Shown: positions 20,038-39,574 of the stretch, piece after piece
How the letters are laid out: the number at the start of each line of letters is the position of its first letter
How positions within the stretch are numbered: the stretch's first letter is position 1
DNA from: Nitrosomonadales bacterium
GTDB taxonomy: Bacteria > Pseudomonadota > Gammaproteobacteria > Burkholderiales > SG8-39
NCBI GenBank assembly: GCA_036676355.1
Contig: JAKFDA010000085.1
Coordinates: 14,027 to 78,026, forward strand
Reading direction: 5' to 3'
Length of the DNA stretch: 64,000 nt
The notes under the pieces: model-generated
Told to the model about the DNA's origin: nothing
Seen by the model: only the letters and a program-made list of their open reading frames with translations
Database searches by the model: none
Translations under genes and position numbers: made by a program

Positions 20038-20075
20038 GATGGTTCCTTTCGTTTACGTTTATCGATTGGCGGCGA

Positions 20076-20953: not shown

Positions 20954-20980
20954 GGCTGTCCCCGCGTTGGCGCGATCCGC

Positions 20981-21769: not shown

Positions 21770-21964
21770 TCCATCACCGTCGATACGACACGCGCGATCG
21801 CACTGCCGCGCATTGGCAAGCACCATAACGCGCGCAACCTGGCGTTCACATTGCCCTTTAGCCCCAACAGGGATCAAGCCGGCGCACCCGCATATCAGTG
21901 TTCAGGACAGTTCGGGTACGGCGCATGCACGCGCCTTTAGTTCCATTGTGTCGAGTGACGACGC

Positions 21965-24247
21965 ATGCCAGTATCGGTGTACCCCAATACCAGTGCGACG
22001 AGCGTGCGAGCGCGACATCAACAGCGAGCACCTATTGGCGCGGTGTGCCGATACCTTGCGCCCGCGCTCCTCGCATTGCTCACGCTCTGCGCGGCCCGTG
22101 CGGCCACCGCGGCGGAGATGCCCACGCACGAGGGACCGCGTATCGGTCTGGCTTTGTCAGGCGGCGGTGCGCGCGGCGCAGCCCATATCGGCGTACTGAA
22201 AGTCCTGGAAGATCTGCGCATCCCGGTGCATTGCATTGCCGGGACGAGCATGGGCTCGATTGTCGGCGGCGCCTATGCGTCCGGCCTGACGCCGAAGCAG
22301 ATGGAAGAACTGATCGTCGGCACCAACTGGAGCGAAGTTTTTACGGATCGTCCACCGCGCGCCGAGATCTCCATCCGCCGCAAGGCCGACGACTACAAGA
22401 ATCTCTATGCGCCAGAGTTCGGCGTCAGCGAAGGTGTCACCGTTCCCAAAGGATTGATCGCCGGCGTATCGGTGGAGAGCTTTCTGCGCGAAGTCACGCA
22501 ATCGGCGGCGCAGATCACCGACTTCTCGCTGTTGCCTATTCCCTTTCGCGCCGTCGCCGCCGACATCGCCACGGGCGAGGAAGTCGTGATGTCCGAAGGC
22601 AGCCTGGCCGAAGCCTTGCGCGCGAGCATGTCGCTGCCCGGTGTGGTGCCGCCGGTGGAACGCGACGGACGACTGCTGGTCGACGGCGGCATCGCCAACA
22701 ACCTGCCCATCGATGTCGTACGCAATCTATGCGCGGATATCGTGATCGCGGTGGACATCGGCACGCCACCGATGAAGCGCGAGGAGATCGGCTCGGCGCT
22801 CACTGTCGTCGGACAGCTCATCAATCTGCTCGGTCAGTACACCGTCAACGAACAGAAGCGCTCGCTGAAGCAAGGCGACATCCTCATTTCGCCGGAGCTC
22901 GGAGACATCGCTTCCACTAGTTTCGAGCGTCAGGCGGAAGCAGTACGGATCGGCGAAGCGGCCGCACGGGCGGCGGCGGACGAGTTGCGCCGCTACAGCA
23001 TTCCGGAAGCGCGATATGCCGAGTTGCGGCGGACACAACAACCGACCGAGTACCAGCTGGGCGTGGTCGATGAAATCCGCTTCGAGGGATTGGAGCGCAC
23101 CAATGCCGCCGTGCTGCGCGGACTCGTGCAATCGCAGCCCGGACAACCGTTGACCGAGGACGAAATCGCGGGCGATCTGCGGCGCATCTACGGGCGCGGC
23201 GATTTCGAAGGCGTCAACTACCGCATCGTGGAAGATGACGGCCGTCGAGCGCTAGTGTTCCTGCCGCACGAGAAATCATGGGGGCCGGATTATCTGCGTT
23301 TCGGCGTAGCCCTCGCCTCGGACTTCGACAGCGAGCACTATTTCAATGCGCTGATCAACTACAAGAAGACCTGGCTGAACCGCTTGGGTGCCGAGTGGAG
23401 TACCGATCTGCAAATCGGCCGCGACCGTTCCTTGCTGACCGAGCTTTATCAGCCCTTGAACGAAGCGAACGATCTGTTCGTTTCGGGCTACGGCTATCTC
23501 GCACGCTCCGTACGGGGTGTGTTCGTCGATGACGACCGCGTCGCCGAATACGACACTCGCGAACAGCGGCTCGGGCTGGATCTCGGCCTCAACTTCTCGA
23601 CATGGGGCACGGCTCGCACCGGTTTGATGTGGCGGGACGTGAGGGCCGATGTGGACACTGGTGCACCGACATTGCCGGAGGGTGACATGCGCGCCTCCGG
23701 CTTCCACGTAGCCTTTGTCACGGATCAGCTCGATGCACCTTATCTCTCTCGCAGCGGGTATTACCTCGAAGCGCGCGGCTTGTTTCCGCGCTCAGGTCTG
23801 GGCGCCGATCGCTCGTACGACCGCATGCTCCTTCGCGCCACAGGCGTGAAGAGTTTCGGCGCCCATACTTTCAATCTGGCGACGTTCTACGGCACGGACT
23901 TCCACTCCGATATGGAGCCATTCGATGCGTTCGTGCTGGGCGGCCCTTTGCGGTTGTCCGCATATCCGATCGATCGTTTCGCCGGACGCGAATACGCCTT
24001 CGGACGCCTGATGTATTACAACCAGGCGATCAAACTTCCCAGCCCCCTCGGTACGGGACTCTATCTCGGCGCGTCGCTGGAAGCCGCGGAAGTCAAACGG
24101 CAGTTCACCGAGTCCGGCAGCTCCGGCGGCCTGTGGTCGGCATCGGTGTTTCTCGCGGCCGACACATTCCTGGGGCCGATCTACTTCGGTTACGGACGCG
24201 GCAAAGGCGGCGAAGACAGCGTGTTCTTCTTTATCGGCGTGCCCTGA
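21965..24247 (+). CDS. Patatin-like phospholipase fused to POTRA/Omp85 barrel (PlpD-like, type Vd secretion)
   Basis: 760 aa. GLALSGGGARGAAHIGVL, GTSMGS (GxSxG), VDGG (Asp dyad). The C-terminal about 350 aa are beta-barrel-like, ending VFFFIGVP. Confidence 0.85.
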   Translation: MPVSVYPNTSATSVRARHQQRAPIGAVCRYLAPALLALLTLCAARAATAAEMPTHEGPRIGLALSGGGARGAAHIGVLKVLEDLRIPVHCIAGTSMGSIVGGAYASGLTPKQMEELIVGTNWSEVFTDRPPRAEISIRRKADDYKNLYAPEFGVSEGVTVPKGLIAGVSVESFLREVTQSAAQITDFSLLPIPFRAVAADIATGEEVVMSEGSLAEALRASMSLPGVVPPVERDGRLLVDGGIANNLPIDVVRNLCADIVIAVDIGTPPMKREEIGSALTVVGQLINLLGQYTVNEQKRSLKQGDILISPELGDIASTSFERQAEAVRIGEAAARAAADELRRYSIPEARYAELRRTQQPTEYQLGVVDEIRFEGLERTNAAVLRGLVQSQPGQPLTEDEIAGDLRRIYGRGDFEGVNYRIVEDDGRRALVFLPHEKSWGPDYLRFGVALASDFDSEHYFNALINYKKTWLNRLGAEWSTDLQIGRDRSLLTELYQPLNEANDLFVSGYGYLARSVRGVFVDDDRVAEYDTREQRLGLDLGLNFSTWGTARTGLMWRDVRADVDTGAPTLPEGDMRASGFHVAFVTDQLDAPYLSRSGYYLEARGLFPRSGLGADRSYDRMLLRATGVKSFGAHTFNLATFYGTDFHSDMEPFDAFVLGGPLRLSAYPIDRFAGREYAFGRLMYYNQAIKLPSPLGTGLYLGASLEAAEVKRQFTESGSSGGLWSASVFLAADTFLGPIYFGYGRGKGGEDSVFFFIGVP

Positions 24248-24316
24248 TCCGATGCCGTTTGTGCCGGTGTCATGCTGCGGCCGGCACCGCGAGCGATTCC
24301 GGACGGTCCGACCACC

Positions 24317-24880
24317 TCAGCGAGGCGTGTACGAAAACTTCTGCCCGCCTACGCTCGCCTCGTACATCAATCCGCCTTTCGCGACGGTGAACGTCGCCAT
24401 GCCGTTCTGGTATTTGCCGATCGTTTCCGCATCGTGTTTGCCGCCGCTGGCTCCTGCCGATGCGCCTGCGGTGCCGGCCTTCGCACTCGTGCCCGCGGTG
24501 ATCGCCACGGCGGAAGCGTCCGCCCCGAATTCGAAGTTACCGCCGGTGAATTCCTTGAACGCGCGATCGTTCTCGAAAAAAATGATCTGGCTATAGGCCT
24601 GGCCACCGAGTTGCAGACCGACCGAAACCTGCGTCACCGACGTATCGCCCACGTACTCACCTTTGCGGTACACGCGGCCTTTGCCGTATGCGCCGCCGAT
24701 ACCGATGCCGCCTTTGCCAATGGTGGGGAACACCGCATAGCCGTAAGCGTTGTTGAAGAAACGTTTGCTCTCCCCGGCTTCCTTGAACACCTTGATCGTT
24801 TCCGCATACTCATCTGCCAGGGCGGGCGCCGGTAACGCAACCGTGGCGACAAGCAATATCCAAAGTAAACGCCTGAACAT
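24317..24880 (-). CDS. SYLF (Ysc84/DUF500) lipid-binding domain protein, secreted
   Basis: 187 aa. Signal peptide. AYGYAVFPTIGKGGIGIGGAYGKG...QVSVGLQLGGQAYSQIIFF is SYLF-like. Confidence 0.65.
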   Translation of the reverse strand: MFRRLLWILLVATVALPAPALADEYAETIKVFKEAGESKRFFNNAYGYAVFPTIGKGGIGIGGAYGKGRVYRKGEYVGDTSVTQVSVGLQLGGQAYSQIIFFENDRAFKEFTGGNFEFGADASAVAITAGTSAKAGTAGASAGASGGKHDAETIGKYQNGMATFTVAKGGLMYEASVGGQKFSYTPR

Positions 24881-25702: not shown

Positions 25703-26800
25703 ATGGATTTGCTCATTCACGAGATACGGCGCAATCCTCTGCTCTGGCTACTCGTCTCCGTACCGTTCGTGCTGATGACGGATCGTTTCAAACCGGATTC
25801 GCCAATATTGCTCTTCTTGCTTTCCATCGTGGCGATCGTTCCGCTCGCCGCGCTGCTGAGTCATGCCACCGAATCGGTTGCCGCGAGAACCGGCGATGCG
25901 GTCGGCGGCCTGCTGAATGCGACGCTCGGCAATCTGACCGAACTGGTCATCGCGCTCTCCGCACTTCGGGCCGGTGAATACCTCCTGGTGAAAGCGACCA
26001 TCGCCGGCGCTATCGTGACGAATGCGCTGTTCATGCTCGGTGCGTCCTTTCTGCTTGGCGGGCTGAAACATCATGTGCAGGAATTCAATCGCACCGGCGT
26101 GCGCCTGCAGGCCGGCATGCTGTTCCTCGCCACCATTTGTCTGCTGCTGCCTTCGGCAGTCGGCGCCATGGCTTCCGGGCAGGCCACCGCCTTCGCCGAA
26201 CAATTGAGCGTGTCGTTGGCTTTGGTGCTGATTGCGACCTACTGCTTGGGCCTTTATTTCTCCCTGGGCACGCATCGTGAATTCTTCAAGGCGCAGAACG
26301 AGCAAGCGGAGAGCGAAACCCACGTGTGGCCCATGCGATTGGCACTGAGCACTCTTGCCGGCGTGACCGTGCTCGTCGCGCTCGTGGCCGAGGTCTTTAT
26401 CGAGTCGGTGCAAGGCGCGGCCGAGACGATGGGAACGAGCAAGGCCTTCGTCGGCTTCATCATCGTTGCGCTGGTCAGCGGCGCGGGCGAAATGGCTGCG
26501 GCGTTCGCCGGAGCGCGCCGCAACCGCCTGGATCTCAGCGTGGGCATCGCATTGGGAAGTGCGACCCAGATCGCCCTTTTCGTCGCGCCGGCGCTCGTGC
26601 TGGCGAGCTATGCGTTGGGTCCATTCCCCATGACGCTGGAGTTCTGGCCCGCCGCGGTGCAAATGGTGCTGGTCGCCACGCTGATCGCCGCGCTCGTATC
26701 CGGAACGGGCCGCGCCGTCTGGTTCACGGGGGTGCTCATCCTCGCGGTCTATGTGGCGTTCGCAATCGCGCTCTACCTGCTTCCGCCTCAACCTTCATGA
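25703..26800 (+). CDS. Ca2+/H+ antiporter (CaCA family, ChaA/CAX-like)
   Basis: 365 aa, about 11 TM. Alpha-repeat motifs GNLTELVIAL and SGAGEMAAAF. Confidence 0.85.
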   Translation: MDLLIHEIRRNPLLWLLVSVPFVLMTDRFKPDSPILLFLLSIVAIVPLAALLSHATESVAARTGDAVGGLLNATLGNLTELVIALSALRAGEYLLVKATIAGAIVTNALFMLGASFLLGGLKHHVQEFNRTGVRLQAGMLFLATICLLLPSAVGAMASGQATAFAEQLSVSLALVLIATYCLGLYFSLGTHREFFKAQNEQAESETHVWPMRLALSTLAGVTVLVALVAEVFIESVQGAAETMGTSKAFVGFIIVALVSGAGEMAAAFAGARRNRLDLSVGIALGSATQIALFVAPALVLASYALGPFPMTLEFWPAAVQMVLVATLIAALVSGTGRAVWFTGVLILAVYVAFAIALYLLPPQPS

Positions 26801-27498
26801 GCACGCGACGGATCGACGAGCTCTTTACATCAGCGTATTCCTTCCTGCCGGCGTACGAACGCCGGCCGGTGCTCGATCCGTTGGCGCGCGCGGCAGAAGT
26901 TATCTTCGGCCTGCTTATGGCGATGTCGTTCTCCGGCTCGCTCAGCGTGGCCACAGCGGGGCAGCAGGAGATTCGCACGATGATGTACGCGGCGCTCGGC
27001 TGCAATCTCGCCTGGGGCATCGTGGATGCGGTTATGTATCTGATCATCACGCTCACCGTTCGGGCGCGCAACATGGCCTTGCTGCGTCGCGTGCGCGGCA
27101 CCACTGACCGCAAGGCCGCGCACGAAAGCATCAGCGAAGCGATGCCCGGTCGGCTGGGAGAGGCGCTCGGCGAAGACGTGCTAGAGGTGCTGCGTCAACG
27201 GCTGGTCGCCATATCAAATCCGCCGACCTACGCGCAATTGCGGCTCGACGATCTGCGCGGCGCGATCGGCGTGTTCTTCCTCGTGGTGCTCGCCACCTTT
27301 CCGATCGTCGTGCCGTTCATGTTCATTCCCGATGCGGCGCTTGCGCTGCGCGTCTCGAACTCGATCGGGCTGGTTATTCTGTTCGCCGCCGGGTACTGCC
27401 TCGGCCGCTATGTCGAAGCCAGCCCATGGCGTCCGGCGCTCGCGCTCGCCGCTGTGGGAGCGGCGCTGTTCTTCGCGATCATCGCGCTGGGCGGATGA
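26797..27498 (+). CDS. VIT1/CCC1-family (Fe/Mn) transporter-like membrane protein
   Basis: Track ORF 26326..27498 trimmed to the ATG at 26797, which overlaps the CaCA stop (ATGA). 233 aa. TM segments at both ends around a soluble helical insert, as in VIT1-family proteins. Confidence 0.65.
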   Translation: MSTRRIDELFTSAYSFLPAYERRPVLDPLARAAEVIFGLLMAMSFSGSLSVATAGQQEIRTMMYAALGCNLAWGIVDAVMYLIITLTVRARNMALLRRVRGTTDRKAAHESISEAMPGRLGEALGEDVLEVLRQRLVAISNPPTYAQLRLDDLRGAIGVFFLVVLATFPIVVPFMFIPDAALALRVSNSIGLVILFAAGYCLGRYVEASPWRPALALAAVGAALFFAIIALGG

Positions 27499-27664
27499 GG
27501 GCGTCCACGATACGCACAATCGTGAACTGGGCAGGGCATCGCCATACCAGGCCGATGATCGAAGGCGAACTGCGGCGCTTGATGCATCGGCTCCGGCGCG
27601 CAGCCGGCGAAGAGAAGCGGCGGTAGCACCGACTAAAGGATGCGAAGCAGTCTGTCGTTCCGCC

Positions 27665-28045
27665 TCAGGCTTGCTCGTCCGGCACCCCGGTCGGCAATCG
27701 ATATGGCGTCGCGCAAATGGGCTCGCTCAGAGCCGCCACACCGCCCTGTGGCCGGCAGATGCGTGCGGCCATGCAGGCATACTCGAACAGCTCGTCGGCG
27801 CGTTCTTCCGGCACAAGCAGTTGCACGAGCCGCACGAACACGGACTCCGGCAGATCGTCGGGATTGCGTGTCTTCGCTGCCCTGATGATGGCTACTCCGC
27901 GGCACGACACGCTATCGGCAACAGTCACGCCGCGCTCCTTCATCGCGCGAATCAACGCCAAATCGGCGCCGTCGTCCGGCAACACGCACACAATGAGCCG
28001 CGTGCGCTCCCAGGCGGTGGAAGTCGCCTGCGACTCCGGACTCAT
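27665..28045 (-). CDS. PII-like (ferredoxin-fold signal-transduction) protein, divergent copy
   Basis: 126 aa. Start overlaps the stop of the preceding PII-like gene (ATGA). RLIVCVLPDDGADLALIRAMKERGV... has a beta-alpha-beta pattern. Assignment is weaker than for the first copy. Confidence 0.45.
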   Translation of the reverse strand: MSPESQATSTAWERTRLIVCVLPDDGADLALIRAMKERGVTVADSVSCRGVAIIRAAKTRNPDDLPESVFVRLVQLLVPEERADELFEYACMAARICRPQGGVAALSEPICATPYRLPTGVPDEQA

Positions 28046-28413
28046 GTCCGCCTCTCCTGCACCAGCCTTTCGCGAACGGCCTCCGGGACATAGGTTGCCA
28101 CCTTGTCGAGCGGGATTGCGTAGATCAGCCCCGCCCCTGGGCGGTCCAGTCCAAGCCGTGCGTAGAGACTGCGCATCACGACATCGCGGTGCTCCGCGGC
28201 GCCGATCATGCTGACCACTTCCTTCTCCGCCTCCACGGCGATGCCTAGAAGGCCGAGACGCTCCCGCACGCCGACGCCGCGCGCGTGGTAAACGACCGCG
28301 CCTGCGACGCCCACGTCGCGGGCGGCCTTGATGACTTCGTCCGCCCGGCCGAGCGGAACGATGCAGTTGATCAGTACCGCGTCGGTGAGATAAGTGAGTC
28401 CGTTGTCGTTCAT
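28042..28413 (-). CDS. PII-like nitrogen-regulatory-family protein
   Basis: 123 aa. VLINCIVPLGRADEVIKAARDVGVAGAVVYHARGVGVRERLG...EKEVVSMI resembles the PII-like proteins that accompany DUF1538 genes. ATGA overlap with the DUF1538 stop. Confidence 0.6.
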   Translation of the reverse strand: MNDNGLTYLTDAVLINCIVPLGRADEVIKAARDVGVAGAVVYHARGVGVRERLGLLGIAVEAEKEVVSMIGAAEHRDVVMRSLYARLGLDRPGAGLIYAIPLDKVATYVPEAVRERLVQERRT

Positions 28414-30248
28414 ATCAATTCCTGGACGGGAGCGAGTGGCTCATCGGATGCGCTGCGCGCCGCGGCGCGCGCTTCACGTTCGCTCTTGTAACGCGACCAC
28501 AACCCGGATATCAGCACGGAGATGATCGGGCCGACCGAGGCCAGGGACAGAATGCCGAAGCCCTCGATCGCGCCGCTCGCATTGGCGAAGCCAAGCCCGA
28601 GCGCGAGCACGAGCGGTACGGTGACGGGACCGGTCGTGACGCCGGCGCTATCCCAGGCGACATTGACGAAGGCTTCGCTGGAAACCAAAGTCAGCACTGC
28701 GGCGACGGCATAGCCGCCGAGCAGCAGCCATACCAATGGCAGATCGAAGACGAGTTTGGCGATGCCGAGTGCGATGCCGAACGCGACGCCGATCGACACT
28801 GCCAGAATCAAGCTCTTCTTCTTGAACACGCCGTTGGTCAGTTCCTCTGCCGTGATGCCGAGCGCCGACAACGCGGGTTCCGCGATCGTTGCGCCGAAGC
28901 CGAGAAACCATACGAACGCGAGTGCGAGGATCAGGCCGGTGATGAAGCCGTAGAGCGGCGAGTCCGCCGCACCGGAGACTTGCATGAATGCGGTCGGCAC
29001 GAGGTTGCCCGATCCGCTTCCCAACGTCGAGAGTCCGTAGGTCAGCCCGAGGTTGAACATGCACATGCCGGCAATGGTGAGTGCAATGCCGAGAAAAATT
29101 TCTGCACGATTGGCGAGGCGTTCGCGCAGCACGAACGTCAGCACCACAAACAAGAACACCACCAGGGGCAGGATTGCTCGGATGCCGGCGACGATTTCCG
29201 CCAACGGGCTGCGCGCGTACCACGGCGGTTGGGCCGCTTGCGCAACGAGCGCCGCCTGACGCGCGCCCTCGACGATCTCGGCCGGCGATACGGTCGAAGC
29301 GACATACATCGCGAGAAGCAGCACACCCGCGACGGGAAACAGCGAGGCGAGCGTCACGATACCGAAGCCCGAGAGGCCGCCGCTCCCCTTGCCGGCCGCG
29401 ACGGAGATTCCCACTCCAAGTGCGAGTACTAGCGGCACGGTAACGGGGCCGGTCGTCACGGCGCCCGTGTCCCAGGCGAGTCCGAGCGCCGTGACGAGAT
29501 CCGGATCGCGCGCCATGTAGAGCGTCGGCGCGAAAGCCAATACCAGCGAGATGAGAATCAGCGGCTTGAGACTCCAACCGTAGAGAAACCGCAATGTGCC
29601 GACGACGGCAGCGAGCCCCACCGACGCACCGACCACCAGCACCAACGCGTCGGACCACTCGTTGAGCAACGCATAAAGATACGGCGCGCGCTCCACCGAA
29701 ACGATCTGGCCGGCGATCTTCAACGCGCCGATGGCTGGCTCCGCGAAAGTCACGCCGATACCCAGCAGCAACGTGAACAACAGCACCAGCGGCAGGGAAA
29801 GTTTGCGCGGCAACTGGCTGCCGATGATCGTGCCGAAGGGCATGAGGCCGATCTTCAGCCCCTCCATGAACAACATCAGCCCGACGATCACCGCCAGCAT
29901 CCCGGCAGTTATGACGAGCGGCCCTTCGATGTGCTCGCGCAGGATAAGAATCTGGAACAGCGCCAGATAGAGCGCTAAAGGAACGACGGCGCGAGCCTGA
30001 TCGTTGAAGCGGTAAGAGATGTAGGGCCGCAGCAGTCTCGACACTTCGTCCGGCCGCAAGCGAAGTTCAGCGGCCTTGGCGGGTAGCGGCTGTCCATCAA
30101 GGCCGTATTCGATGACGGGAGCCAGCGCGTTGTAGCTAATCTGCCGTGCGCCGCTTCCCATTGCACGTAGATAGTCACCGTAACGTACGCATCGCTCGAC
30201 AGCCGATGTCGAGCGATGCGCGTCGGCCATCCCGACCTCCGCAGTCAT
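28410..30248 (-). CDS. Polytopic membrane protein with two DUF1538-like repeats
   Basis: Track ORF trimmed to ATG 30248 (GGAGG 5 nt upstream), giving 612 aa. Internal duplication is visible: WDTGAVTTGPVTVPLVLALGVGIS and WDSAGVTTGPVTVPLVLALGLGFA, each preceded by ...TFAEPAIGAL / TIAEPALSAL. Confidence 0.7.
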   Translation of the reverse strand: MTAEVGMADAHRSTSAVERCVRYGDYLRAMGSGARQISYNALAPVIEYGLDGQPLPAKAAELRLRPDEVSRLLRPYISYRFNDQARAVVPLALYLALFQILILREHIEGPLVITAGMLAVIVGLMLFMEGLKIGLMPFGTIIGSQLPRKLSLPLVLLFTLLLGIGVTFAEPAIGALKIAGQIVSVERAPYLYALLNEWSDALVLVVGASVGLAAVVGTLRFLYGWSLKPLILISLVLAFAPTLYMARDPDLVTALGLAWDTGAVTTGPVTVPLVLALGVGISVAAGKGSGGLSGFGIVTLASLFPVAGVLLLAMYVASTVSPAEIVEGARQAALVAQAAQPPWYARSPLAEIVAGIRAILPLVVFLFVVLTFVLRERLANRAEIFLGIALTIAGMCMFNLGLTYGLSTLGSGSGNLVPTAFMQVSGAADSPLYGFITGLILALAFVWFLGFGATIAEPALSALGITAEELTNGVFKKKSLILAVSIGVAFGIALGIAKLVFDLPLVWLLLGGYAVAAVLTLVSSEAFVNVAWDSAGVTTGPVTVPLVLALGLGFANASGAIEGFGILSLASVGPIISVLISGLWSRYKSEREARAAARSASDEPLAPVQELI

Positions 30249-30313
30249 CGTGCCTCCATGTATCGCGCGGCGCTCCGGTTTTTCATTGTCGAATAGGCGC
30301 GTGAACGCCGGCG

Positions 30314-31321
30314 TCACCAGGCCTTCAGATAAGCTTCCGCCGCGCTGAAGCGCAGCAGGACACCGATGACCGCATCGAGGAAGCCGAGGAAGTGGATCGG
30401 CTTTTCCGCGGCGATCCATACCGCGCCGGTCGCGCCGACCGGAATGTTGATGCCCGGCGGCTCATTGAATTCCAGGACCACCAGACGTCCAACCGCCATG
30501 CTGCCGACGGCAACGCGTTCTCCAACGCCCTGCGGAATGCCGCCGAACAGGATTCCCTGCGCCTCGCCTGTCGATCCGCCCACGCTATGCACGCGGGCGC
30601 GAAAGATCTTGCCCGGATAGGCGTTGACGTAGAACTCCGCGAAGGCCTTCGGCTTGATATAGCCGTACACCTGATCCGGAATGCGCACTTCGATGAACTT
30701 CTTGTTGGTGAACATCTGGATCGATGCCGGTCGCAGTTCGGGAAAGTACTGGCCTTCCGCGGTGTACTGGATCGTCACCTGTCCGTCCGTGGGGGCGACG
30801 ATCACCGCGCGATCGACTTTCCACTGCAGATCGGCGATCGCCTGCTGCGCCTTCACCACCATGTCGCGTTGTCCGCGGATCTCCGCCTCCTTCGCGTCGT
30901 ATTCCGCTTCCGAGACGATGTCGCCGCGTAACTGCTTCAAGCGGGCGAGATCTCTTTCGAGCTTCGCAAGCTGTGTCTGCAGCCGCGCCCGCTCGGCAAT
31001 CTGCGACTTCATTTCGATCTCATAGCGATCGGTCTTGTAGCGGTAGATCGGGTCGCCCGCTTTGACGATCTGATTGTGCGTGACGTAGATCTTCTCGATC
31101 TCGCCGCCTGCGGGCGTGTTGAGTATGACGTGCGGCGCTCGGACCATCGCGGAATGCGTGAGATCGAGGAACGCCAGATAGCGCGTCAGCGTCAGCACCA
31201 TGAACACGAGGAACAGGCCGCCGAGGCCCATGGCGATCATGTTGCCGAGCGTCTTGTTGATGACCTTGAATTTGACCAGCAGCCAGCAGATGAGGATGTA
31301 TCCGCCCAGGATGATTTTCAT
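30314..31321 (-). CDS. HlyD-family periplasmic adaptor (AaeA/YibH-like)
   Basis: 335 aa. N-terminal TM, lipoyl-like hairpin (GEIEKIYVTHNQIVKAGDPIY ... APTDGQVT) flanking a coiled coil. Confidence 0.8.
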   Translation of the reverse strand: MKIILGGYILICWLLVKFKVINKTLGNMIAMGLGGLFLVFMVLTLTRYLAFLDLTHSAMVRAPHVILNTPAGGEIEKIYVTHNQIVKAGDPIYRYKTDRYEIEMKSQIAERARLQTQLAKLERDLARLKQLRGDIVSEAEYDAKEAEIRGQRDMVVKAQQAIADLQWKVDRAVIVAPTDGQVTIQYTAEGQYFPELRPASIQMFTNKKFIEVRIPDQVYGYIKPKAFAEFYVNAYPGKIFRARVHSVGGSTGEAQGILFGGIPQGVGERVAVGSMAVGRLVVLEFNEPPGINIPVGATGAVWIAAEKPIHFLGFLDAVIGVLLRFSAAEAYLKAW

Positions 31322-31800
31322 AACCGTTCCTCCCGCTCGAAGTCCCGGTTCGGTGTGTGGATGGTATGCACGACGCCTGGCGATTCGCGTGTGGGCTCGG
31401 GATGTGTTTCTTCGGGCGCGCTCATCGTCGCAGGCGGTTCATCGGTCTGCGGCGGCAATCCCCGGCCGCGCCTGAAAACGCGCACCAGTGTCTCTTCCGC
31501 CTGCTCCCAATCGAGATAGGCGATGAACAACGCGATCGCCCACACCCAGTGCTGGAACAGTCCGAGCAGCGTCAGGGCGCTCACGAGTTCAGCCTGGCGC
31601 AGCTTCTTATGCTCGGCGCGATGCTTCGGAATCTCATGCAAACGCCACCCCACCATCAGCGCGATGATGATGATGATCAATAACAGCGGCAGCAGGATGT
31701 ACATCACCCAGTCCGCGTCGAGAATGGCGCGATAGAGACCGAACGGTTCGTTCGCGTAGTACCCGTCCGGGACGTCTTCCTTGTAGACATGGAAGAGCAT
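31318..31800 (-). CDS. DUF3302-like small membrane protein (YibI/YiaW-like)
   Basis: 160 aa. Two TM helices (ILLPLLLIIIIIALMVGW; LLGLFQHWVWAIALFIAYL) with HEIPKHRAEH between them. ATGA overlaps at both ends. Confidence 0.55.
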   Translation of the reverse strand: MLFHVYKEDVPDGYYANEPFGLYRAILDADWVMYILLPLLLIIIIIALMVGWRLHEIPKHRAEHKKLRQAELVSALTLLGLFQHWVWAIALFIAYLDWEQAEETLVRVFRRGRGLPPQTDEPPATMSAPEETHPEPTRESPGVVHTIHTPNRDFEREERL

Positions 31801-33161
31801 CAGAACCCTCCTCCCAGCGCCTTGTAATACTGGCTGCGCGCCACGAGTTGGTTCAGTCGCGCATCCGCCAGCGTCAATTCCGCGTTCAGCACCCGGATCG
31901 TTTGGGCGAGCACTTCGTATTTGCTGGTGCGGCCGACCAGATAACTTTTCTCGTCCAGGGCGAGCGCTTCCCTGCGGGCCGCGACTGCTTCCGCGGTCGC
32001 CACCGCTTGCCGATCTCCCGTATCGACGAGCACGAGCGCTTCATATGCCTCGCGGAACGCAGACGACACCACATACCGGTAGTGCGCGATGGCCTTTTGC
32101 CGCCGCGCCTCGGCGCCGGCGACTTTCCAGTCGATGGCGCCGGCATCGAATATCGGCCCGGCCAGACCCGCGGCCGCCTGCCAGAAGAACGGCATGCCGG
32201 TGACGAGCGCGGAGGACGACCCGATCCAGCCCGCAGCCAGCGAAATCGTCAGGCGCGGGTAGTACTCGGCGCGGATGCTGTCCAGGTCGGCGTGCGCCGC
32301 GCGCAGCAACTGTTCGGCTGAAGCCACGTCGGGACGGCGCAACAGCAGATCCGAATCGATTTCTCGCGGCGTGTCGGGAATACGCACCGCGGCCTGTTGC
32401 GTACGCGGCAATGCTTCAGCGATGTCGCGAGGGCTGCGACCGATCAGCAATGCCAGCGCGAGTTCCGTGCGTGCGATCGCCGCCTCCATCACTGGAATCT
32501 GCGCCGCGACCGTGGCGACTTCGGCAAGGCTCTGGCGATACGCCAGCGCGGTGCCGACCTGTGCCTTCCAGCGGCGGAATTCGAAATCCGCCACGGCCCT
32601 GAGGTTGTCATGCGTATCCCGGGTGATGGCGAGCTTGTTCTCCAAGTTAAGCAGCTGGAAATAAGTCTCGGCGACCGCTTGCGATATGGACAACTGCGTC
32701 GCGTCGCGCACATGTTCCGATGCGGACAACTGCGCGAGCGCCGCTTCGTTCAGGTTTTCGATACGGTCCCACAGATCGACCTCCCAGTTCAGCAGCGCGC
32801 CGATGCTCGTGACGGAGACGCGCTTGTCGAACTCCTCCTCCTGACCCAGCACCAACTGACGCCGGGACAACGTCGACTTGACCTGCCCGTCCACGCGGGG
32901 AAACAGCATCGCATGGGCAACGCCCGCGTTGGCGCGCGCTTCGGCGACGTTGGCCGCCGCCTTCGCCAGATCGTAGTTGTTGCGCAGCGCTTCCTCGATG
33001 AACCGATCGAGCACAGGATCACCGAAGGTTTGCCACCACCGCGAGTCGATGAGGATGCGTGCGCGCTCCGGCGGGAGGTCGAGTTGCGGGCGCACGTATG
33101 CGGTCGGCGTCGGCCCGCACCCCGCGCAAGCGGCCGCAGCCAGCCCCGCGATGACGCGCAT
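31800..33161 (-). CDS. Outer-membrane efflux lipoprotein (OMF, NodT family)
   Basis: Trimmed to MRVIAGLAAAACAGCGP (lipobox). WWQTFGDPVLDRFIEEALRNNYDLAKAAANVAEARA and the duplicated OEP repeats are classic NodT/OprM-family features. Confidence 0.85.
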   Translation of the reverse strand: MRVIAGLAAAACAGCGPTPTAYVRPQLDLPPERARILIDSRWWQTFGDPVLDRFIEEALRNNYDLAKAAANVAEARANAGVAHAMLFPRVDGQVKSTLSRRQLVLGQEEEFDKRVSVTSIGALLNWEVDLWDRIENLNEAALAQLSASEHVRDATQLSISQAVAETYFQLLNLENKLAITRDTHDNLRAVADFEFRRWKAQVGTALAYRQSLAEVATVAAQIPVMEAAIARTELALALLIGRSPRDIAEALPRTQQAAVRIPDTPREIDSDLLLRRPDVASAEQLLRAAHADLDSIRAEYYPRLTISLAAGWIGSSSALVTGMPFFWQAAAGLAGPIFDAGAIDWKVAGAEARRQKAIAHYRYVVSSAFREAYEALVLVDTGDRQAVATAEAVAARREALALDEKSYLVGRTSKYEVLAQTIRVLNAELTLADARLNQLVARSQYYKALGGGF

Positions 33162-33527
33162 CGCGATGCGGCACGAGTAGTTCTGCAGCGAACGCGAGGG
33201 CCGCCGATACGTCGATGCACCAGTTCGCACGAGTGAGGTTCCCGGGTTTGCGATGCGACATGCGTCGCTTCGCATCTGCCGCGCGCGTTCAGGGTAGTGC
33301 CGGCTTGCGGCCGCAACAATGAGACCTTCGTCCCATGAAGCGCGCCGCCGAAGGCGTGCGCGGGCCGAGGCATGCCCCGTTGCATTGGGACCAAGGCCCT
33401 ATGGCGATCGTTTTGGCGCACTCCTAGCATTCCGTACGCGCCGCCGATCCGACGTCAGCGCTCCACGGCGTGATCGGCGGGCGGATGCTGGGGACATGCG
33501 GTTGTGTGCGCCGCGGAGGGGGAAAGC

Positions 33528-34904
33528 ATGAATCGACGTGTACTTTATATGGCCATCGCTTGCGCACTAAGCGGCAATGCCGCCGCGCAAACCTCTGAGG
33601 ACATCAAATCCCAGCTCGATGATGCAATGCGTGTCATTCGCGAATTGCAGGAGCGCGTCAAGGCGCTCGAGCAGCAAGAGCATGCGCCCGTACCGGCCCC
33701 TTCATCGCCGACTGCCGCGCCCAGAGACCCCGCCACGCATGCCGAGAAAGAGGCGCCGGGCGTGAAAGGCGCGCGCGTGATCGCGCCGCAAAGCGCCCCG
33801 GAAGAAGGTGCTTGGGGCGGCGAAGCGCGACTGGAAATCAGCGGCAAGGTCCAGCTCGATTTCATCTACGACTTCGATCGCGTCGATCCGGATTGGAACG
33901 CAACCTTGCGGCCGTCCACCATCCCGGTGAACTGTCCGGGCGATCCGGGCTGCGGGGAGGACGGCGAGACCGTCTTCAGCGTGCGTCAGACTTCGCTCGG
34001 CTTCAAGGCGTTCGTCCCCACGACCGCGGGCGAGTTGAAAGCGGAGGTGAGTTTCGATCTGTTCTCCACAGGCGGCGGGCAAACATCGGCACGGCTGCTG
34101 AATGCATGGGGCGCCCTGGGCAACCGGATCGGGCTCGGACAGTACTACACCTTGTTCATGAATCAGGACGCGTTTCCCAATGTCGTCGATTACTGGGGAC
34201 CGAACGGCATGGTGTTCGTCCGCAATCCGCAGATCCGCTATCTCGCCTATGAAAAGGAGGGGCTGAAGCTCGCCTTCTCGCTCGAAGCGCCCAATGCGGC
34301 GATCGATACCGGCAAAGTAGCGGACATCGATCCGGCCTTGAACGTGCGCAGTCATACGCAATGGCCGGACGCCGTCGGCAAGCTGAGTTGGGATCAGGAC
34401 TGGGGGCACTTCCAGGTCGCCGGCGTTCTGCGCTCCGTGGGCTTCGAAACATTGGGCGACGACGTCGATTCAGACGAAGAACTGGGCTGGGGCGTGAACG
34501 TGAGCGGGTGGTTGAAGGTCGGAGCAAAGAATCGCCTCATCGGGCAAGTGGTATACGGCGAGGGGATCGCCAGTTACATGAACGACGGCGGCGTCGACCT
34601 CGCACCGAGTTCCAGCCTGAAGGCCGAGACCGTGAAGACGCTCGGTGCGTTCGTCTATTACGACCATTACTGGAACGACAAGTGGAGCAGTTCCGTCGGG
34701 GCGAGCATCCATCGCCAGGACAACACCGGCGGACAGCTTCCCACCGCATACAAGGAAGGCCTGTACGCGTCGGCCAACATCCTCTGGTATCCGGCGAAGA
34801 ACGTGCTGACCGGTGTTGAATTCCTCTGGGGTCGTCTGGAACAGAACGACGGCGAGTCCGGCGACGATTTTCGCGTGCAGTTCAGCGGCCAGTACAAGTA
34901 CTAA
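33528..34904 (+). CDS. DcaP-like outer-membrane porin (N-terminal coiled coil plus beta-barrel)
   Basis: Trimmed to ATG 33528 (GGAGGGGG RBS). Signal peptide, coiled coil IKSQLDDAMRVIRELQERVKALEQQ, Pro-rich linker, barrel ending FSGQYKY. Confidence 0.6.
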   Translation: MNRRVLYMAIACALSGNAAAQTSEDIKSQLDDAMRVIRELQERVKALEQQEHAPVPAPSSPTAAPRDPATHAEKEAPGVKGARVIAPQSAPEEGAWGGEARLEISGKVQLDFIYDFDRVDPDWNATLRPSTIPVNCPGDPGCGEDGETVFSVRQTSLGFKAFVPTTAGELKAEVSFDLFSTGGGQTSARLLNAWGALGNRIGLGQYYTLFMNQDAFPNVVDYWGPNGMVFVRNPQIRYLAYEKEGLKLAFSLEAPNAAIDTGKVADIDPALNVRSHTQWPDAVGKLSWDQDWGHFQVAGVLRSVGFETLGDDVDSDEELGWGVNVSGWLKVGAKNRLIGQVVYGEGIASYMNDGGVDLAPSSSLKAETVKTLGAFVYYDHYWNDKWSSSVGASIHRQDNTGGQLPTAYKEGLYASANILWYPAKNVLTGVEFLWGRLEQNDGESGDDFRVQFSGQYKY

Positions 34905-34932: not shown

Positions 34933-37194
34933 GTGTCCTTCACTCAAGCATTCCCGGTCGCCATCATCGATGAAGATTTCGAAGGCAAGCATGCGGCCGG
35001 TCGCGGCATGCGCCAGCTCGCAGCCGCCATCGAGAGCGAGGGCTTCCGCGTCGTGAGCGGCGTGAGCTATGCGGATGCGCAGCGGCTGGTCGATGTCATC
35101 AATACCGAGTCGTGCTGGCTCGTCTCCGTGGACGGCATCGAAGAAACCGAGGGCCAATGGAATCTGTTGGAAGAAGTGCTTGCCAAGAAGCGGCGACGGA
35201 ACAACCGCCTGCCGATTTTCCTGTTCGGCGATCAGCGCACCGCGGAGATGGTGCCGGCGAACGTGCTCAGGCACGCCAACGCTTTCATGGCCCTGTTCGA
35301 AGATCCGCCGGAGTTTCTGGCACGCACCATCTGCCGGGCGGCGCATATCTATCTCGAACGCCTTCCGCCGCCGATGTTCAAGGCGCTGATGGATTACACG
35401 TTGCATGGCGGGTATTCCTGGCACACCCCGGGTCATGGCGGCGGCGCAGGCTTTCGCAAAAGCCCGGTGGGGCAGCTCTTCTATCACTTCTTCGGTGAAA
35501 ACACGCTGCGCTCCGACATCTCCGTCTCGGTCGGTGCGCTCGGCTCCCTGCTCGACCACACGGGGCCGATTGCCGAAGGCGAACGCAATGCCGCGCGCAT
35601 TTTCGGCACCGACGAGACGCTTTTCGTGGTGGGCGGCACATCGACCGCGAACAAGATCGTGTGGCACGGCATGGTCGGCCGCAACGACCTGGTGCTGTGC
35701 GACCGCAACTGTCACAAGTCGATCCTGCATTCACTCATCATGACGGGCGCGACGCCGATCTACCTGATCCCGTCGCGCAACGGACTCGGCATCATCGGAC
35801 CCATTTCGCGCGACCAGTTCAGCGCGGAGTCGATCCGCATGAAGGTCGATGCCAGTCCGTTCGCCAAGGACACCACCGGCAACGTGCGGTTGATGGTGAT
35901 GACCAATTCCACCTATGACGGACTCTGCTACAACATCGACGCGATCAAGCAGTTGATCGGCGATTCGGTCGAGGTGCTGCACTTCGACGAGGCGTGGTAT
36001 GCCTACGCCAACTTCCACGAGTTCTACGACGGCTATCACGCCATTTCGTCGAACGACCCGGCGCGCGCGAAGAACGCGGTGACCTTCGCTACGCAATCGA
36101 CGCACAAGCTGCTGGCAGCGCTGTCGCAGGCGTCGATGATCCACATCCAGAACGCCGAGACGAAGCAACTGGACATGACGCGCTTCAACGACGCCTTCAT
36201 GATGCATACCTCCACCTCGCCGCAGTACGGGATCATCGCGTCCTGCGATGTGGCGGCGGCCATGATGGAACAGCCGGGCGGCCGCGCCCTCGTGCAGGAG
36301 ACCATCGACGAGGCGCTGAGCTTCCGCCGCGCCATGACGGCGGTGAAAGCGCAGATTCCGGAGACGACGTGGTGGTTCGACGTCTGGCAGCCGGAGGCGA
36401 TCGCGCAACAGCCCGTCGTCGACAGGGCAGCCTGGGTTTTGAAACCCGGCGATGCATGGCACGGTTTCACCGATCTTGCCGAGAACCACGTACTCGTCGA
36501 CCCCATCAAGGTGACCATTCTTTCGCCCGGCATGTCCGCGGACGGGACGATGCAGGAGCAAGGCATTCCCGCCGCCGTGATCACCAAGTTCCTCTCCTCG
36601 CGACGCATCGAGATCGAGAAAACCGGCTTGTATTCGTTCCTGGTGCTGTTCTCCTTCGGCATCACCAAAGGCAAGTGGAGCACGCTCCTCACCGAGTTGA
36701 TGAACTTCAAGGATCTCTACGACGCCAACGCCCCGCTCCGGCGCGCGCTGCCCGCATGGACGACGCTGCACGCGGACATCTACGGAAAGATGGGACTGAA
36801 GGATCTGTGCGACCACATCCATCAGGTGTACCGGGAAGATAACGTGCCGGAGGCGCAGAAGAACATGTACACCGTGCTGCCCGAAATGGCGATGCGTCCG
36901 GCCGATGCTTATGATCATCTCGTGCGCGGGCGCGTCGAAAGCGTCGAGATCGACCATCTGATGGGGCGGACGCTCGCGGTGATGATCGTGCCCTACCCGC
37001 CTGGCATTCCGCTGATCATGCCCGGCGAGCGCATCACGACCGCGACCAGGTCGATCCAGGACTACCTCCTCTACGCACGCGATTTTGACCGCAAATACCC
37101 CGGCTTCGAAACCGATATCCACGGCTTGCGCTTCGAGCACACATCCGAAGGGCGTCGTTACATGATCGACTGCATCGAGGAAGGAAGCGGGTGA
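34933..37194 (+). CDS. Wing-domain (AAT-fold) Orn/Lys/Arg decarboxylase, lysine-decarboxylase-like (CadA/LdcC/LdcA clade)
   Basis: 753 aa, GTG start with GGAG upstream. PLP-Lys context ATQSTHKLLAALSQASMIH...FMMHTSTSPQYGIIAS and C-terminus YPGFETDIHG resemble CadA/LdcC. Substrate was not determinable by eye. Confidence 0.85.
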   Translation: MSFTQAFPVAIIDEDFEGKHAAGRGMRQLAAAIESEGFRVVSGVSYADAQRLVDVINTESCWLVSVDGIEETEGQWNLLEEVLAKKRRRNNRLPIFLFGDQRTAEMVPANVLRHANAFMALFEDPPEFLARTICRAAHIYLERLPPPMFKALMDYTLHGGYSWHTPGHGGGAGFRKSPVGQLFYHFFGENTLRSDISVSVGALGSLLDHTGPIAEGERNAARIFGTDETLFVVGGTSTANKIVWHGMVGRNDLVLCDRNCHKSILHSLIMTGATPIYLIPSRNGLGIIGPISRDQFSAESIRMKVDASPFAKDTTGNVRLMVMTNSTYDGLCYNIDAIKQLIGDSVEVLHFDEAWYAYANFHEFYDGYHAISSNDPARAKNAVTFATQSTHKLLAALSQASMIHIQNAETKQLDMTRFNDAFMMHTSTSPQYGIIASCDVAAAMMEQPGGRALVQETIDEALSFRRAMTAVKAQIPETTWWFDVWQPEAIAQQPVVDRAAWVLKPGDAWHGFTDLAENHVLVDPIKVTILSPGMSADGTMQEQGIPAAVITKFLSSRRIEIEKTGLYSFLVLFSFGITKGKWSTLLTELMNFKDLYDANAPLRRALPAWTTLHADIYGKMGLKDLCDHIHQVYREDNVPEAQKNMYTVLPEMAMRPADAYDHLVRGRVESVEIDHLMGRTLAVMIVPYPPGIPLIMPGERITTATRSIQDYLLYARDFDRKYPGFETDIHGLRFEHTSEGRRYMIDCIEEGSG

Positions 37195-39542
37195 TGGATC
37201 CGCCGACCATTCCCGTTCCCTTTCATCGTCTGCTGAAGATTGTCGCGATCGCCGATCGCGAAGATCAGCAGGTGAAGGAATTGATCGAACACATCCGCGC
37301 CGAGAACTACCAGGTTGAGGTGACAGACAGCCTGGAACGCGACGTGTCCGAAGACGCCGCGATCGGCGCGTACATCATCCAGGTCGACGGGCAACGGCTG
37401 GAACCCGCGCGCGCACTCGCGCGTTCGGTGCGCGGCATCGGTTTCCGTACGCCGCTCTGGGCGCTTGCCGATTCGCATGGCATCTCCGACATCGCCGTGC
37501 TGGGCGGTCTCGGCGAAGTCGAAGGCTTCGTCTATCTGGGTCAGCAGACACCCGCCTTCTATGCCAAGCAGATCATCGTCAGCCTGGTGAAGTACGGAAG
37601 CAGCCTGCTGCCTCCCTTCTTCGGCGGTTTGGTGAGATACGACGCGGATGCGACCATCGCATTCGATTGTCCGGGACACCAGGGCGGGCAGTTCTATCGC
37701 AAATCGCCGCCCGGACAACTGTTCTTCAAGCACTTCGGCGAAAATATTTTCCGTAACGATCTGTGCAATGCCGACGTGGCTCTGGGCGACATGCTGATCC
37801 ACGAAGGCGCGGTGCTGGACGCGGAGTGTCACGCCGCGGAAGTATTCGGCGCTGATCAGACCTACTTCGTCCTCAACGGTACCAGCACATCGAACAAGAT
37901 CGTGACCGGCGCGGTGCTGCGTCAGGGCGATCTCGTGCTGTTCGACCGAAACAATCACAAGTCGCTGCACCAGGGCGCGCTGGTGCAGGCCGGCGCCATT
38001 CCCATCTTCCTACCGACTGCGCGCAACCCTTTCGGCATGATCGGCGCGGTGGATTGGGACGCGTGGGATGAAGACGCCCTGCGCCAGCGCATTCGCGACA
38101 ATCCGCTGATCGAGGATCAGGATCGCCACAGGGCCGAACGCCCCTTCCGCCTTGCGTGCATTCAGCTTGCGACGTACGACGGCACGATCTACAACGTGCG
38201 CAAGGTGCTGGAAAAGATCGGCCACCTCTGCGACTACGTGCTATGGGACGAGGCCTGGATCGGCTACAACGCCTTTCATCCGCTGTTCGACGACCACAGC
38301 CCGATGCGTCTCAAGGATCTGCCGCCCGAGATGCCGGGGCTGTTCTCGACCCAGTCGGTACACAAGCAGGGTGCGGGCTTCTCGCAAGCCTCACAAATTC
38401 ACAAGCGCGACGAGCATATCCATGGTCAGAAACGCTACATCGAACACAAGCGCTTCAACGAGTCGTTTCTGATCCACGCCTCCACCTCACCCTTCTATCC
38501 GCTGTTCGCGTCGCTGGACGTCAACGCAAAAGTGCATGAAGGCAAGGCGGGCGAGATGCTATGGGATCGCTGCATCGAACTGGGCATCGAGGCGCGCAAG
38601 AAATTGCGTCAGTTCGGCCGTCACTACGCGAAGAACGGCCGCGGGGCGGCCGAGCAGTGGTTCTTCGATCCTTTCGTGCCGGATGTCGTAACGATCCATG
38701 CGTCGAAATTCACCGACGACGCCATGAACGTTCACTGGGAAGACCTGCCGACAAAGGTGATCAAACGCGAACAGCAGTGCTGGCGCTTCGATCCCAAAGC
38801 GACCTGGCACGGCTATGCGGGCTACGCCGACGACTACGCCATGGTCGACCCCAACAAGCTGATGCTGCTCACGCCCGGAATCGATCGCCGGACGGGCGAA
38901 TACCTCGATTTCGGCGTTCCCGCAACGGTTGTCGCGAATCACCTGCGCGAGCAGCGCGTCGTGCCGGAGAAATGCGATCTGAACAGCATTCTCTTTCTAA
39001 TGACGCCTGCGGAGGACGAAAGCAAGCTGAATACGCTCATCGCCAAGCTGGTGAAGTTCAAGAACGCCTGGGACGAGGACATGAAGCTGGAATTGGTGCT
39101 GCCCACCATCTGTGGCAAGCATCCCGAGCGCTACGCGGGCTATACGCTTCGTCAGATCTGCAATGAGATGCACGCCTTCTACGCGAAGGCCAACATCAAG
39201 GAGTTGCAGCGCCTGTGCTTCCGCGCGACGAGCTTTCCGGAAATGGCGCGCCTGCCGCACGAGGCCTACCGCGCGCTGGTAGGCAACGATGTGGATTACG
39301 TGCCGCTCGATCAGACGAAAGGCCGCATCGCCGCGACACTCGCCCTGATCTACCCGCCCGGGATCGGCGTCATAGCGCCCGGCGAGCGTTGGGACGAACG
39401 GGCGAAACCGATGCTCGATTACTTCTTTGCCTTCGAGGAGTCCTTCAACCGCTTCCCCGGCTTCAACTACGAGGTACAGGGCGTCTATCAGGAGCACATC
39501 GACGGTCGCATCAGGTTCCACACCTACGTGGTGCGTGAGTAG
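37194..39542 (+). CDS. Wing-domain ornithine decarboxylase (SpeC/SpeF-like)
   Basis: About 782 aa. ATG 37194 overlaps the upstream TGA by 1 nt (alternative GTG at 37191). STQSVHKQGAGFSQASQIHKRDEHIHGQKRY...STSPFYPLFASLDVNA and DLNSILFLMTPAE closely track E. coli SpeF/SpeC as I remember them. Confidence 0.88.
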   Translation: MDPPTIPVPFHRLLKIVAIADREDQQVKELIEHIRAENYQVEVTDSLERDVSEDAAIGAYIIQVDGQRLEPARALARSVRGIGFRTPLWALADSHGISDIAVLGGLGEVEGFVYLGQQTPAFYAKQIIVSLVKYGSSLLPPFFGGLVRYDADATIAFDCPGHQGGQFYRKSPPGQLFFKHFGENIFRNDLCNADVALGDMLIHEGAVLDAECHAAEVFGADQTYFVLNGTSTSNKIVTGAVLRQGDLVLFDRNNHKSLHQGALVQAGAIPIFLPTARNPFGMIGAVDWDAWDEDALRQRIRDNPLIEDQDRHRAERPFRLACIQLATYDGTIYNVRKVLEKIGHLCDYVLWDEAWIGYNAFHPLFDDHSPMRLKDLPPEMPGLFSTQSVHKQGAGFSQASQIHKRDEHIHGQKRYIEHKRFNESFLIHASTSPFYPLFASLDVNAKVHEGKAGEMLWDRCIELGIEARKKLRQFGRHYAKNGRGAAEQWFFDPFVPDVVTIHASKFTDDAMNVHWEDLPTKVIKREQQCWRFDPKATWHGYAGYADDYAMVDPNKLMLLTPGIDRRTGEYLDFGVPATVVANHLREQRVVPEKCDLNSILFLMTPAEDESKLNTLIAKLVKFKNAWDEDMKLELVLPTICGKHPERYAGYTLRQICNEMHAFYAKANIKELQRLCFRATSFPEMARLPHEAYRALVGNDVDYVPLDQTKGRIAATLALIYPPGIGVIAPGERWDERAKPMLDYFFAFEESFNRFPGFNYEVQGVYQEHIDGRIRFHTYVVRE

Positions 39543-39574
39543 CGCCGTCACGTCACACAGCAGAGGTTCGCATC

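Follow-up and report, generated by a model that had tools for sequence, protein, structure and literature searches.

The described systems closest to the six genes examined here, which lie on the minus strand at 27665-33161 of a 64,000-nucleotide stretch of a Nitrosomonadales contig (JAKFDA010000085.1; hereafter the window), are an ion antiporter, a pair of orphan Escherichia coli loci and the transporters plugged by PII proteins. UmpAB of Halomonas zhaodongensis is a two-component Na+(Li+,K+)/H+ antiporter with DUF1538 (PMC5484666). A clone limited to umpA and umpB gave E. coli KNabc Na+/Li+ tolerance and antiport activity, as measured by complementation and vesicle assays; it ended at umpB, and PII proteins are unmentioned in the paper (PMC5484666). 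We found no DUF1538 literature beyond UmpAB, and no functional papers on DUF3302, YibH or YiaV, the components of the E. coli YibIH and YiaWV loci. Among transporters under PII control, GlnK plugs AmtB. SbtB is the PII-type plug of the transporter SbtA, and the PII-plugged transporters established so far carry ammonium and bicarbonate (PMC8352866).

The original prediction for this cluster was that its DUF1538 protein could be the pump of a PII-gated, envelope-spanning exporter, with two unrelated adjacent modules as the alternative. We compared about 135 related loci, 80 of them centred on DUF1538 and 55 on the adaptor of the cluster; individual loci are cited below by L number. This comparison suggests that the cluster probably consists of two independent, separately conserved three-gene modules that stand head to tail in this lineage. 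Module 1 (outer-membrane factor (OMF), DUF3302-like protein and adaptor) would be of the YibIH/YiaWV type, and module 2 (DUF1538, PII-like 1 and PII-like 2) of the UmpAB type.

All six open reading frames (ORFs) are present in the ORF listing, consecutive on the minus strand and at the coordinates first proposed for them. Of the four gene overlaps predicted to be ATGA, those at 31318-31321, 28410-28413 and 28042-28045 read as such, while the overlap at 31800 is TGATG and spans 1 nt. The sole gap among the six genes is the junction between the modules on the minus strand, 65 nt at 30249-30313.

The transporter of module 2 (28410-30248, minus strand) is a fused double-DUF1538 protein of 612 amino acids, with an UmpA-like half followed by an UmpB-like half. 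PF07556 matched it in two stretches with 336 bits, and both copies of VTTGPVTVPLVLALG, which had been noted as marking two internal repeats, were found. The repeat is also visible in the DNA, where 28572-28660 and 29391-29479 are 73% identical. The UmpA model NF041627 covers residues 81-313 with 200.2 bits (equivalog cutoff 490), and the UmpB model NF041628 covers residues 354-592 with 174.5 bits (equivalog cutoff 500). By these matches the protein belongs to the UmpAB family but is not an equivalog. More than 7,600 homologues were found, and the 120 listed are 586-617 amino acids long.

Like UmpAB, the window protein consists of an A unit and then a B unit, which are homologous DUF1538 domains, each with several predicted transmembrane segments and conserved motifs. 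UmpAB is an inner-membrane system with no adaptor or channel requirement. Unlike in UmpAB, the units of the window protein are fused in one 612-residue chain with an N-terminal extension of about 80 amino acids; unlike in the UmpAB clone, the fused form is always trailed by two PII-like genes (76/76 loci). Each half keeps acidic residues in the motifs F-A-E-P-A and W-D-x-G-x-V-T-T-G-P-V-T-V-P, which could plausibly be ion-binding, broken-helix elements.

Structure searches were uninformative. The AlphaFold2 model of the DUF1538 protein, built from a shallow 12-sequence alignment, is mediocre (predicted local distance difference test (pLDDT) 63, predicted template modelling score (pTM) 0.65). 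A Foldseek search of this model against the PDB returned nothing meaningful (best E = 0.04, template modelling score at most 0.16), and the sequence profile had no match in the PDB. Because neither the model nor the profile matches solved structures, a disguised RND, ABC, MFS or PET pump was ruled out by sequence. The original prediction named membership of a known pump or importer family as a ground for rejecting it, and stated that DUF1538 lacks an experimentally assigned substrate. On the first count it fails, as UmpA and UmpB models matched and UmpAB is active alone in E. coli (PMC5484666); the statement on the substrate is outdated, UmpAB having been characterised (PMC5484666; NF041627/NF041628).

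The transporter gene is followed by genes for two divergent PII-like proteins, protein 1 (123 amino acids, 28042-28413) and protein 2 (126 amino acids, 27665-28045), both on the minus strand. Protein 1 matched PF00543 weakly, at 18.5 bits and under the cutoff of 25; its family profile matched solved PII proteins in the PDB over nearly its full length (E = 2.9e-5). Protein 2 had no Pfam match and gave weak C-terminal matches to PII proteins in the PDB, and its family aligned with that of protein 1 in hhalign (97.3%, E = 1.7e-11), which identifies it as a paralogue. The pair has a T-loop-like RERLG segment and glycine-rich, B-loop-like PG.G / GRPGGG segments. The profile match to solved PII proteins and the hhalign result support two putative PII-like partners of about 125 amino acids, which both fall below the Pfam P-II cutoff.

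This arrangement recalls GlnK-AmtB and SbtB-SbtA, where a transporter gene and a small gene of the PII superfamily go strictly together, and T-loop-like and B-loop-like segments are conserved here as well. Compared with GlnK and SbtB, there are two divergent paralogues instead of one, both under the Pfam P-II threshold. The transporter differs from Amt and SbtA in its pseudo-two-fold make-up, a fused A-B pair, and in having an unrelated fold. By analogy, the most likely role of the PII-like proteins would be to bind nucleotides and, from the cytoplasmic side, to plug the transporter or release it.

Module 1 opens with a gene for a NodT-type OMF lipoprotein (31800-33161, minus strand). Its open frame runs on to 33275, and the length of 453 amino acids is counted from the ATG at 33161. 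The product matched TIGR01845 outer_NodT with 260.9 bits (cutoff 210) and Pfam OEP at 6.6e-37, and its N-terminus, MRVIAGLAAAACAGC, reads as an apparent lipoprotein signal. The second gene (31318-31800, minus strand) encodes a 160-residue DUF3302-like protein with two predicted transmembrane segments (hydrophobic at 24-58 and 75-96). Its match to PF11742 (DUF3302), 17.7 bits, is under the cutoff of 32. In a 31-sequence alignment, H55, P58, A62, L81, W87 and L91 are invariant between this protein and E. coli YiaW/YibI, and PF11742 is the family matched most often (11/31, two of these being E. coli YiaW and YibI). We therefore treated the small protein as a putative remote relative of DUF3302 proteins of the YibI/YiaW kind.

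The third gene (30314-31321, minus strand) encodes a YibH/YiaV-like, HlyD-family adaptor of 335 amino acids, with matches to HlyD_3 (34.3 bits, cutoff 22.2) and Biotin_lipoyl_2 (32 bits, cutoff 29.8). Residues 3-332 align end to end with residues 4-374 of E. coli YibH (22% identity, E = 6e-15), and the adaptor likewise aligns end to end with E. coli YiaV. Its family profile matched MacA, EmrA and AcrA in the PDB. Hydrophobic segments lie at 2-22, 24-55 and 309-327. A low-confidence single-chain model (pLDDT 54, pTM 0.31), used for secondary structure only, suggests two N-terminal transmembrane helices, a short coiled-coil hairpin, beta domains and a C-terminal hydrophobic helix. The NodT and HlyD assignments made at the outset were confirmed by searches with hidden Markov models (HMMs), and the DUF3302-like assignment is supported by a match below the Pfam cutoff and by the alignment.

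Module 1 resembles the E. coli pairs YibI-YibH and YiaW-YiaV, where the gene for a small DUF3302-type protein with two predicted transmembrane segments lies directly upstream of the adaptor gene, in the same position and with the same overlap as in module 1. The two N-terminal transmembrane segments and C-terminal hydrophobic helix of YibH and YiaV are also seen in the window adaptor, and the E. coli loci, like module 1, have no adjacent pump gene. The window adaptor is shorter than YibH (335 versus 378 amino acids) and so is its hairpin, whereas the small protein is longer than YibI and YiaW (160 amino acids, with a proline/glutamate-rich tail) and only remotely similar to them. Furthermore, module 1 always opens with a dedicated NodT-type channel gene, which the E. 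coli loci do not have. An OMF and a membrane-fusion adaptor in one operon are also found in AcrAB-TolC, MacAB-TolC, EmrAB-TolC and AaeAB/MdtNOP. Unlike these canonical tripartite efflux systems, module 1 has no RND, ABC, MFS or PET/FUSC pump gene in its operon or conserved near the 55 related loci. Family searches bear out the earlier observation that the six genes include no such pump; their sole polytopic product is the DUF1538 protein.

To compare loci from the transporter side, we used one genome per GTDB species and took the best 80 of 406 relatives, all of the fused form, with genes at each locus called by a longest-ORF heuristic. These transporters are 61-82% identical to that of the window and come from gamma- and betaproteobacteria, Nitrospira, Desulfobulbia, Sulfurovum and others. 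Both PII-like genes lie 3' of DUF1538, in the same order and on the same strand, in all 76 loci with at least 0.8 kb of downstream sequence. The gene upstream varies almost everywhere across the 80 loci. None of the 68 loci with at least 1.1 kb upstream has a relative of the window adaptor, small protein or OMF in that position. The fused form of about 600 amino acids occurs mainly in autotrophic sulfur oxidisers, purple sulfur bacteria and nitrite oxidisers; record titles (L013-L080) include Thiobacillus, Halothiobacillus, Thiogranum, Chromatiaceae, Sulfurovum and Nitrospira.

The census from the adaptor covered 55 loci, drawn from metagenome contigs (not de-replicated and often short) and from exact look-ups. 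The adaptor family is tight, at 334-335 amino acids and 63-83% identity. OMF, small protein and adaptor genes are colinear in all 31 related loci with at least 2 kb upstream (for example L083, 8077-11005, and L084, 8094-11005). DUF1538 lies 3' of the adaptor in just one of the 27 loci with at least 1 kb downstream. This locus, L085, is 98% identical to the window, and in L086 the DUF1538 gene is 95% identical; because of this near-identity, and because L085 and L086 have the junction in common, we place L085 in the same shallow lineage as the window. Elsewhere the gene 3' of the adaptor varies by locus (response regulator, beta-lactamase, patatin-like protein, SulP and others), and in three annotated contexts it is a response regulator, a hypothetical protein or a beta-lactamase. 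No conserved pump gene or transporter cluster was found near the module 1 trio in the 55 loci, up to 10 kb.

The closest non-identical relative, L081 (adaptor 83% identical), carries OMF, small protein, adaptor and response-regulator genes, followed by convergent VIT-like and CaCA genes. In the window, a CaCA gene (25703-26800, plus strand; Pfam Na_Ca_ex) and a VIT1-like gene (26797-27498, plus strand; weak VIT1 match) are 75% and 61% identical to their L081 counterparts. They are joined by an ATGA overlap at 26797-26800 and converge on the end of the six-gene cluster. In L081 this pair likewise points towards the adaptor trio, and the slot of the DUF1538 trio is filled by a response-regulator gene. 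Because the DUF1538 trio holds the response-regulator slot between the same anchors, the synteny looks like the signature of an insertion or replacement on a shared backbone, rather than of an ancestral six-gene operon. No convincing flanking repeats or target-site duplications were seen around the DUF1538 trio.

Both censuses and the L081 synteny thus uphold the alternative of two unrelated adjacent modules. Their separate conservation, their independence of one another, the insertion-like synteny and the family memberships are all direct observations. Since the adjacency is confined to one shallow lineage, the modules are conserved separately, the synteny points to insertion and DUF1538 activity is independent of an adaptor, our data do not support the proposal of a new exporter architecture. 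In particular, DUF1538 as the pump of such an exporter is disfavoured by linkage in 1/27 and 0/68 loci and by the function already assigned to the family.

Under the two-module reading, module 2 would work on its own in the inner membrane as an ion transporter of the UmpAB type. We propose that it carries out cation/proton antiport, the one activity demonstrated in the DUF1538 family, and the two PII-like proteins would gate it from the cytoplasmic side in response to adenine nucleotides or another metabolite. Module 1 would be a separate envelope-spanning assembly of the E. coli YibIH/YiaWV type, which has an outer-membrane channel of its own in every case and no conserved pump gene in any. 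It may act as the adaptor and channel parts of a tripartite exporter, without a pump. Its inner-membrane part could then be the adaptor's three hydrophobic helices together with the small protein, or a pump encoded elsewhere. The gating, the cation substrate and the pump-less working of module 1 are what we infer from these likenesses.

The trio of DUF1538 and two PII-like genes, strictly conserved in 76/76 loci and found in several phyla, is a candidate new PII-gated transporter. Such gating would widen the "valve plug" idea to transporters other than those of ammonium and bicarbonate. The pump-less trio of NodT, DUF3302-like and YibH-like genes (31/31 loci) bears on the role of the orphan E. 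coli systems YibIH and YiaWV.

Several points weigh against two independent modules. Only 65 nt, with no terminator, lie between the modules, and L085 and L086, both near-identical to the window, share this junction. Since no inner-membrane partner was found for module 1, it could conceivably have recruited one. PII gating of DUF1538 is proposed by analogy. Furthermore, because the UmpA and UmpB scores are far under their equivalog cutoffs (200/490 and 174/500 bits), the substrate of the 612-residue protein is uncertain. Finally, in 12/80 loci DUF1538 has a member of a second, distant YibH-like adaptor subfamily within 10 kb; in three of these, all Chromatiaceae (L044, L056, L068), the adaptor gene stands directly upstream on the same strand, 28-63 nt away. 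Raw counts give 13 genes of this subfamily in 1.16 Mb of DUF1538-centred DNA and none in the 0.41 Mb of control DNA centred on the window adaptor's relatives; the figure for E. coli K-12 is two per 4.6 Mb.

The junction itself shows no sign of a break in transcription. A GGAGG lies 4 nt 5' of the ATG at 30248, so the ribosome-binding site of the DUF1538 gene occupies the 3' half of the gap. Consensus scans of 30249-30313 found no terminator-like and no sigma-70-like site, a sigma-54 pattern search gave no match, and the gap holds no Rfam element. Its RNA folds no better than shuffled sequence (z = 0.46). A weak terminator-like hairpin lies 3' of the last gene, at 27618-27631 on the minus strand. 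The absence of a terminator hairpin from the gap, as originally reported, is therefore borne out by consensus scan and folding, and the co-transcription suggested at the time is likely, although these searches do not prove it. Because nothing in the gap indicates a transcription break, it is plausible that the six genes are read as one transcript in this lineage. The short spacing, the lack of a terminator and the retention of the junction in two contigs likewise suggest that the modules are probably co-expressed here.

The second adaptor subfamily (about 409 amino acids) has its own partner of about 145 amino acids, and ORF clustering and family HMMs show both to be homologous to the window pair. 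These distant c11-type adaptors were missed by our first tblastn census and found by the family-HMM census. Besides the directly adjacent cases, one gene separates adaptor and DUF1538 in Thiocapsa L076 and L077, and in L042 and L006 the adaptor has an OMF gene as partner and lies 2.4-5 kb 3' of DUF1538. The enrichment of this subfamily near DUF1538 is real and phylogenetically clustered, with Chromatiaceae-like loci making up seven of the 12. Three other Chromatiaceae genomes have this pair too, but no DUF1538 lies within 8 kb of it. The earlier expectation of HlyD/OMF enrichment near DUF1538 thus fails for relatives of the window adaptor (0/68) and holds for the distant YibH-like subfamily (12/80, with 3 of the 68 informative loci having it directly upstream).

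A broader pattern surrounds both modules. In many taxa and in reshuffled order, they are found near genes for SulP/STAS, PPK2, Ppx/GppA, AI-2E, DUF2092 and DUF900 proteins, and also DUF3313, patatin-Omp85, a CusF-like periplasmic protein, Ysc84 and sigma-54 activators. Part of this recurrent set occupies 19339-24880 and 51766-54260 of the window (see also L001-L080 and L138-L140). The window encodes DUF3313, patatin, Ysc84, CusF-like, CaCA, VIT-like, SulP and PPK2 proteins. The presence of polyphosphate enzymes beside ion transporters is striking. The patatin gene of the window (21965-24247, plus strand) encodes a 760-residue protein with patatin-like phospholipase, POTRA and Omp85 domains; its relatives occur near both modules and, in L093, directly downstream of the adaptor.

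Most simply, the two modules share one neighbourhood whose gene order keeps changing. Shared residence raises the odds of occasional adjacency and implies no complex. It also leaves a serious possibility, though short of an even chance, that the modules are functionally linked: they would belong to one loosely conserved, reshuffled stress and ion-homeostasis neighbourhood and be co-regulated, with no physical complex. We give the same guarded credence to the idea that their tasks are related ones, concerning cations, polyphosphate or the envelope, for example. The same families surround both modules in many taxa and in shifting order, and the window itself encodes the proteins listed above, from DUF3313 to PPK2. 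Among relatives of the adaptor trio, a patatin-like gene lies directly downstream in L093 and a SulP gene in L102. However, consensus and sigma-54 scans found no common regulator or promoter motif, the theme is drawn from family names only, and many DUF1538 loci have none of these neighbours.

It is rather unlikely, but worth weighing, that module 2 imports or exports some other solute, such as an anion or inorganic carbon, under PII control, and that the activity assayed for UmpAB is a side activity. The UmpA and UmpB scores well under equivalog cutoffs would allow this, as would the hosts of the fused form, which are mostly autotrophic sulfur and nitrite oxidisers, and the presence of a SulP gene in 21/80 loci. 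The known PII-plugged transporters, with their ammonium and bicarbonate substrates, also fit (PMC8352866). Against this, the sole experimental data for the family are those on Na+(Li+,K+)/H+ antiport (PMC5484666), and no carboxysome, RuBisCO, carbonic-anhydrase or DAB genes were among the recurrent neighbours examined. DAB pumps had been suspected beside DUF1538 in Halothiobacillus-like loci, but the Pfam matches there were to glycogen phosphorylase, Ppx/GppA and ATP synthase. On this result, both the DAB pumps and a link to inorganic-carbon uptake were rejected.

Last, a YibH-type adaptor and its DUF3302 partner may have recruited DUF1538 as inner-membrane component, here and independently in some Chromatiaceae (purple sulfur bacteria). 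We consider such lineage-restricted coupling improbable. The product, which we hold to be just as doubtful, would be an envelope-spanning cation or metabolite exporter under two PII-like proteins, here with its own outer-membrane channel. We keep a small probability for coupling because YibH-like adaptors are enriched near DUF1538 above zero (12/80 loci). Two apparently independent same-strand adjacencies, involving two adaptor subfamilies (the window lineage and L044/L056/L068), also speak for it. So do the probable co-transcription across a conserved 65-nt gap with no terminator, and the lack of any other pump gene with module 1, here or in any relative. In true tripartite systems, adaptor and pump genes are almost always linked. 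By that measure the counts are unfavourable, since 64 of the 68 informative DUF1538 loci have no adjacent adaptor and 26 of the 27 adaptor relatives have no DUF1538. The three additional Chromatiaceae genomes whose adaptor pair has no DUF1538 within 8 kb, and the lack of an OMF gene near the directly adjacent Chromatiaceae pairs (L044, L056, L068), point the same way. UmpAB is active alone in E. coli (PMC5484666), and the L081 synteny shows the DUF1538 trio as an insertion. If coupling were true, the architecture would be one not described so far, and DUF1538 as a pump would be a fifth class of inner-membrane engine for tripartite exporters and a new target of PII signalling.

Other genes of the window lie beyond both modules. 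Divergent from the six-gene cluster is a gene for a DcaP-like porin (33504-34904, plus strand), 5' of three tandem paralogous Orn/Lys/Arg decarboxylase genes (34933-41878, plus strand) whose products have 753, 783 and 767 amino acids. All three decarboxylases have the N-terminal wing domain typical of acid-stress-inducible enzymes, and no amino-acid/polyamine antiporter gene was seen beside them. The only Rfam match of the window at gathering score is a single tRNA gene, at 63572-63644 on the minus strand.

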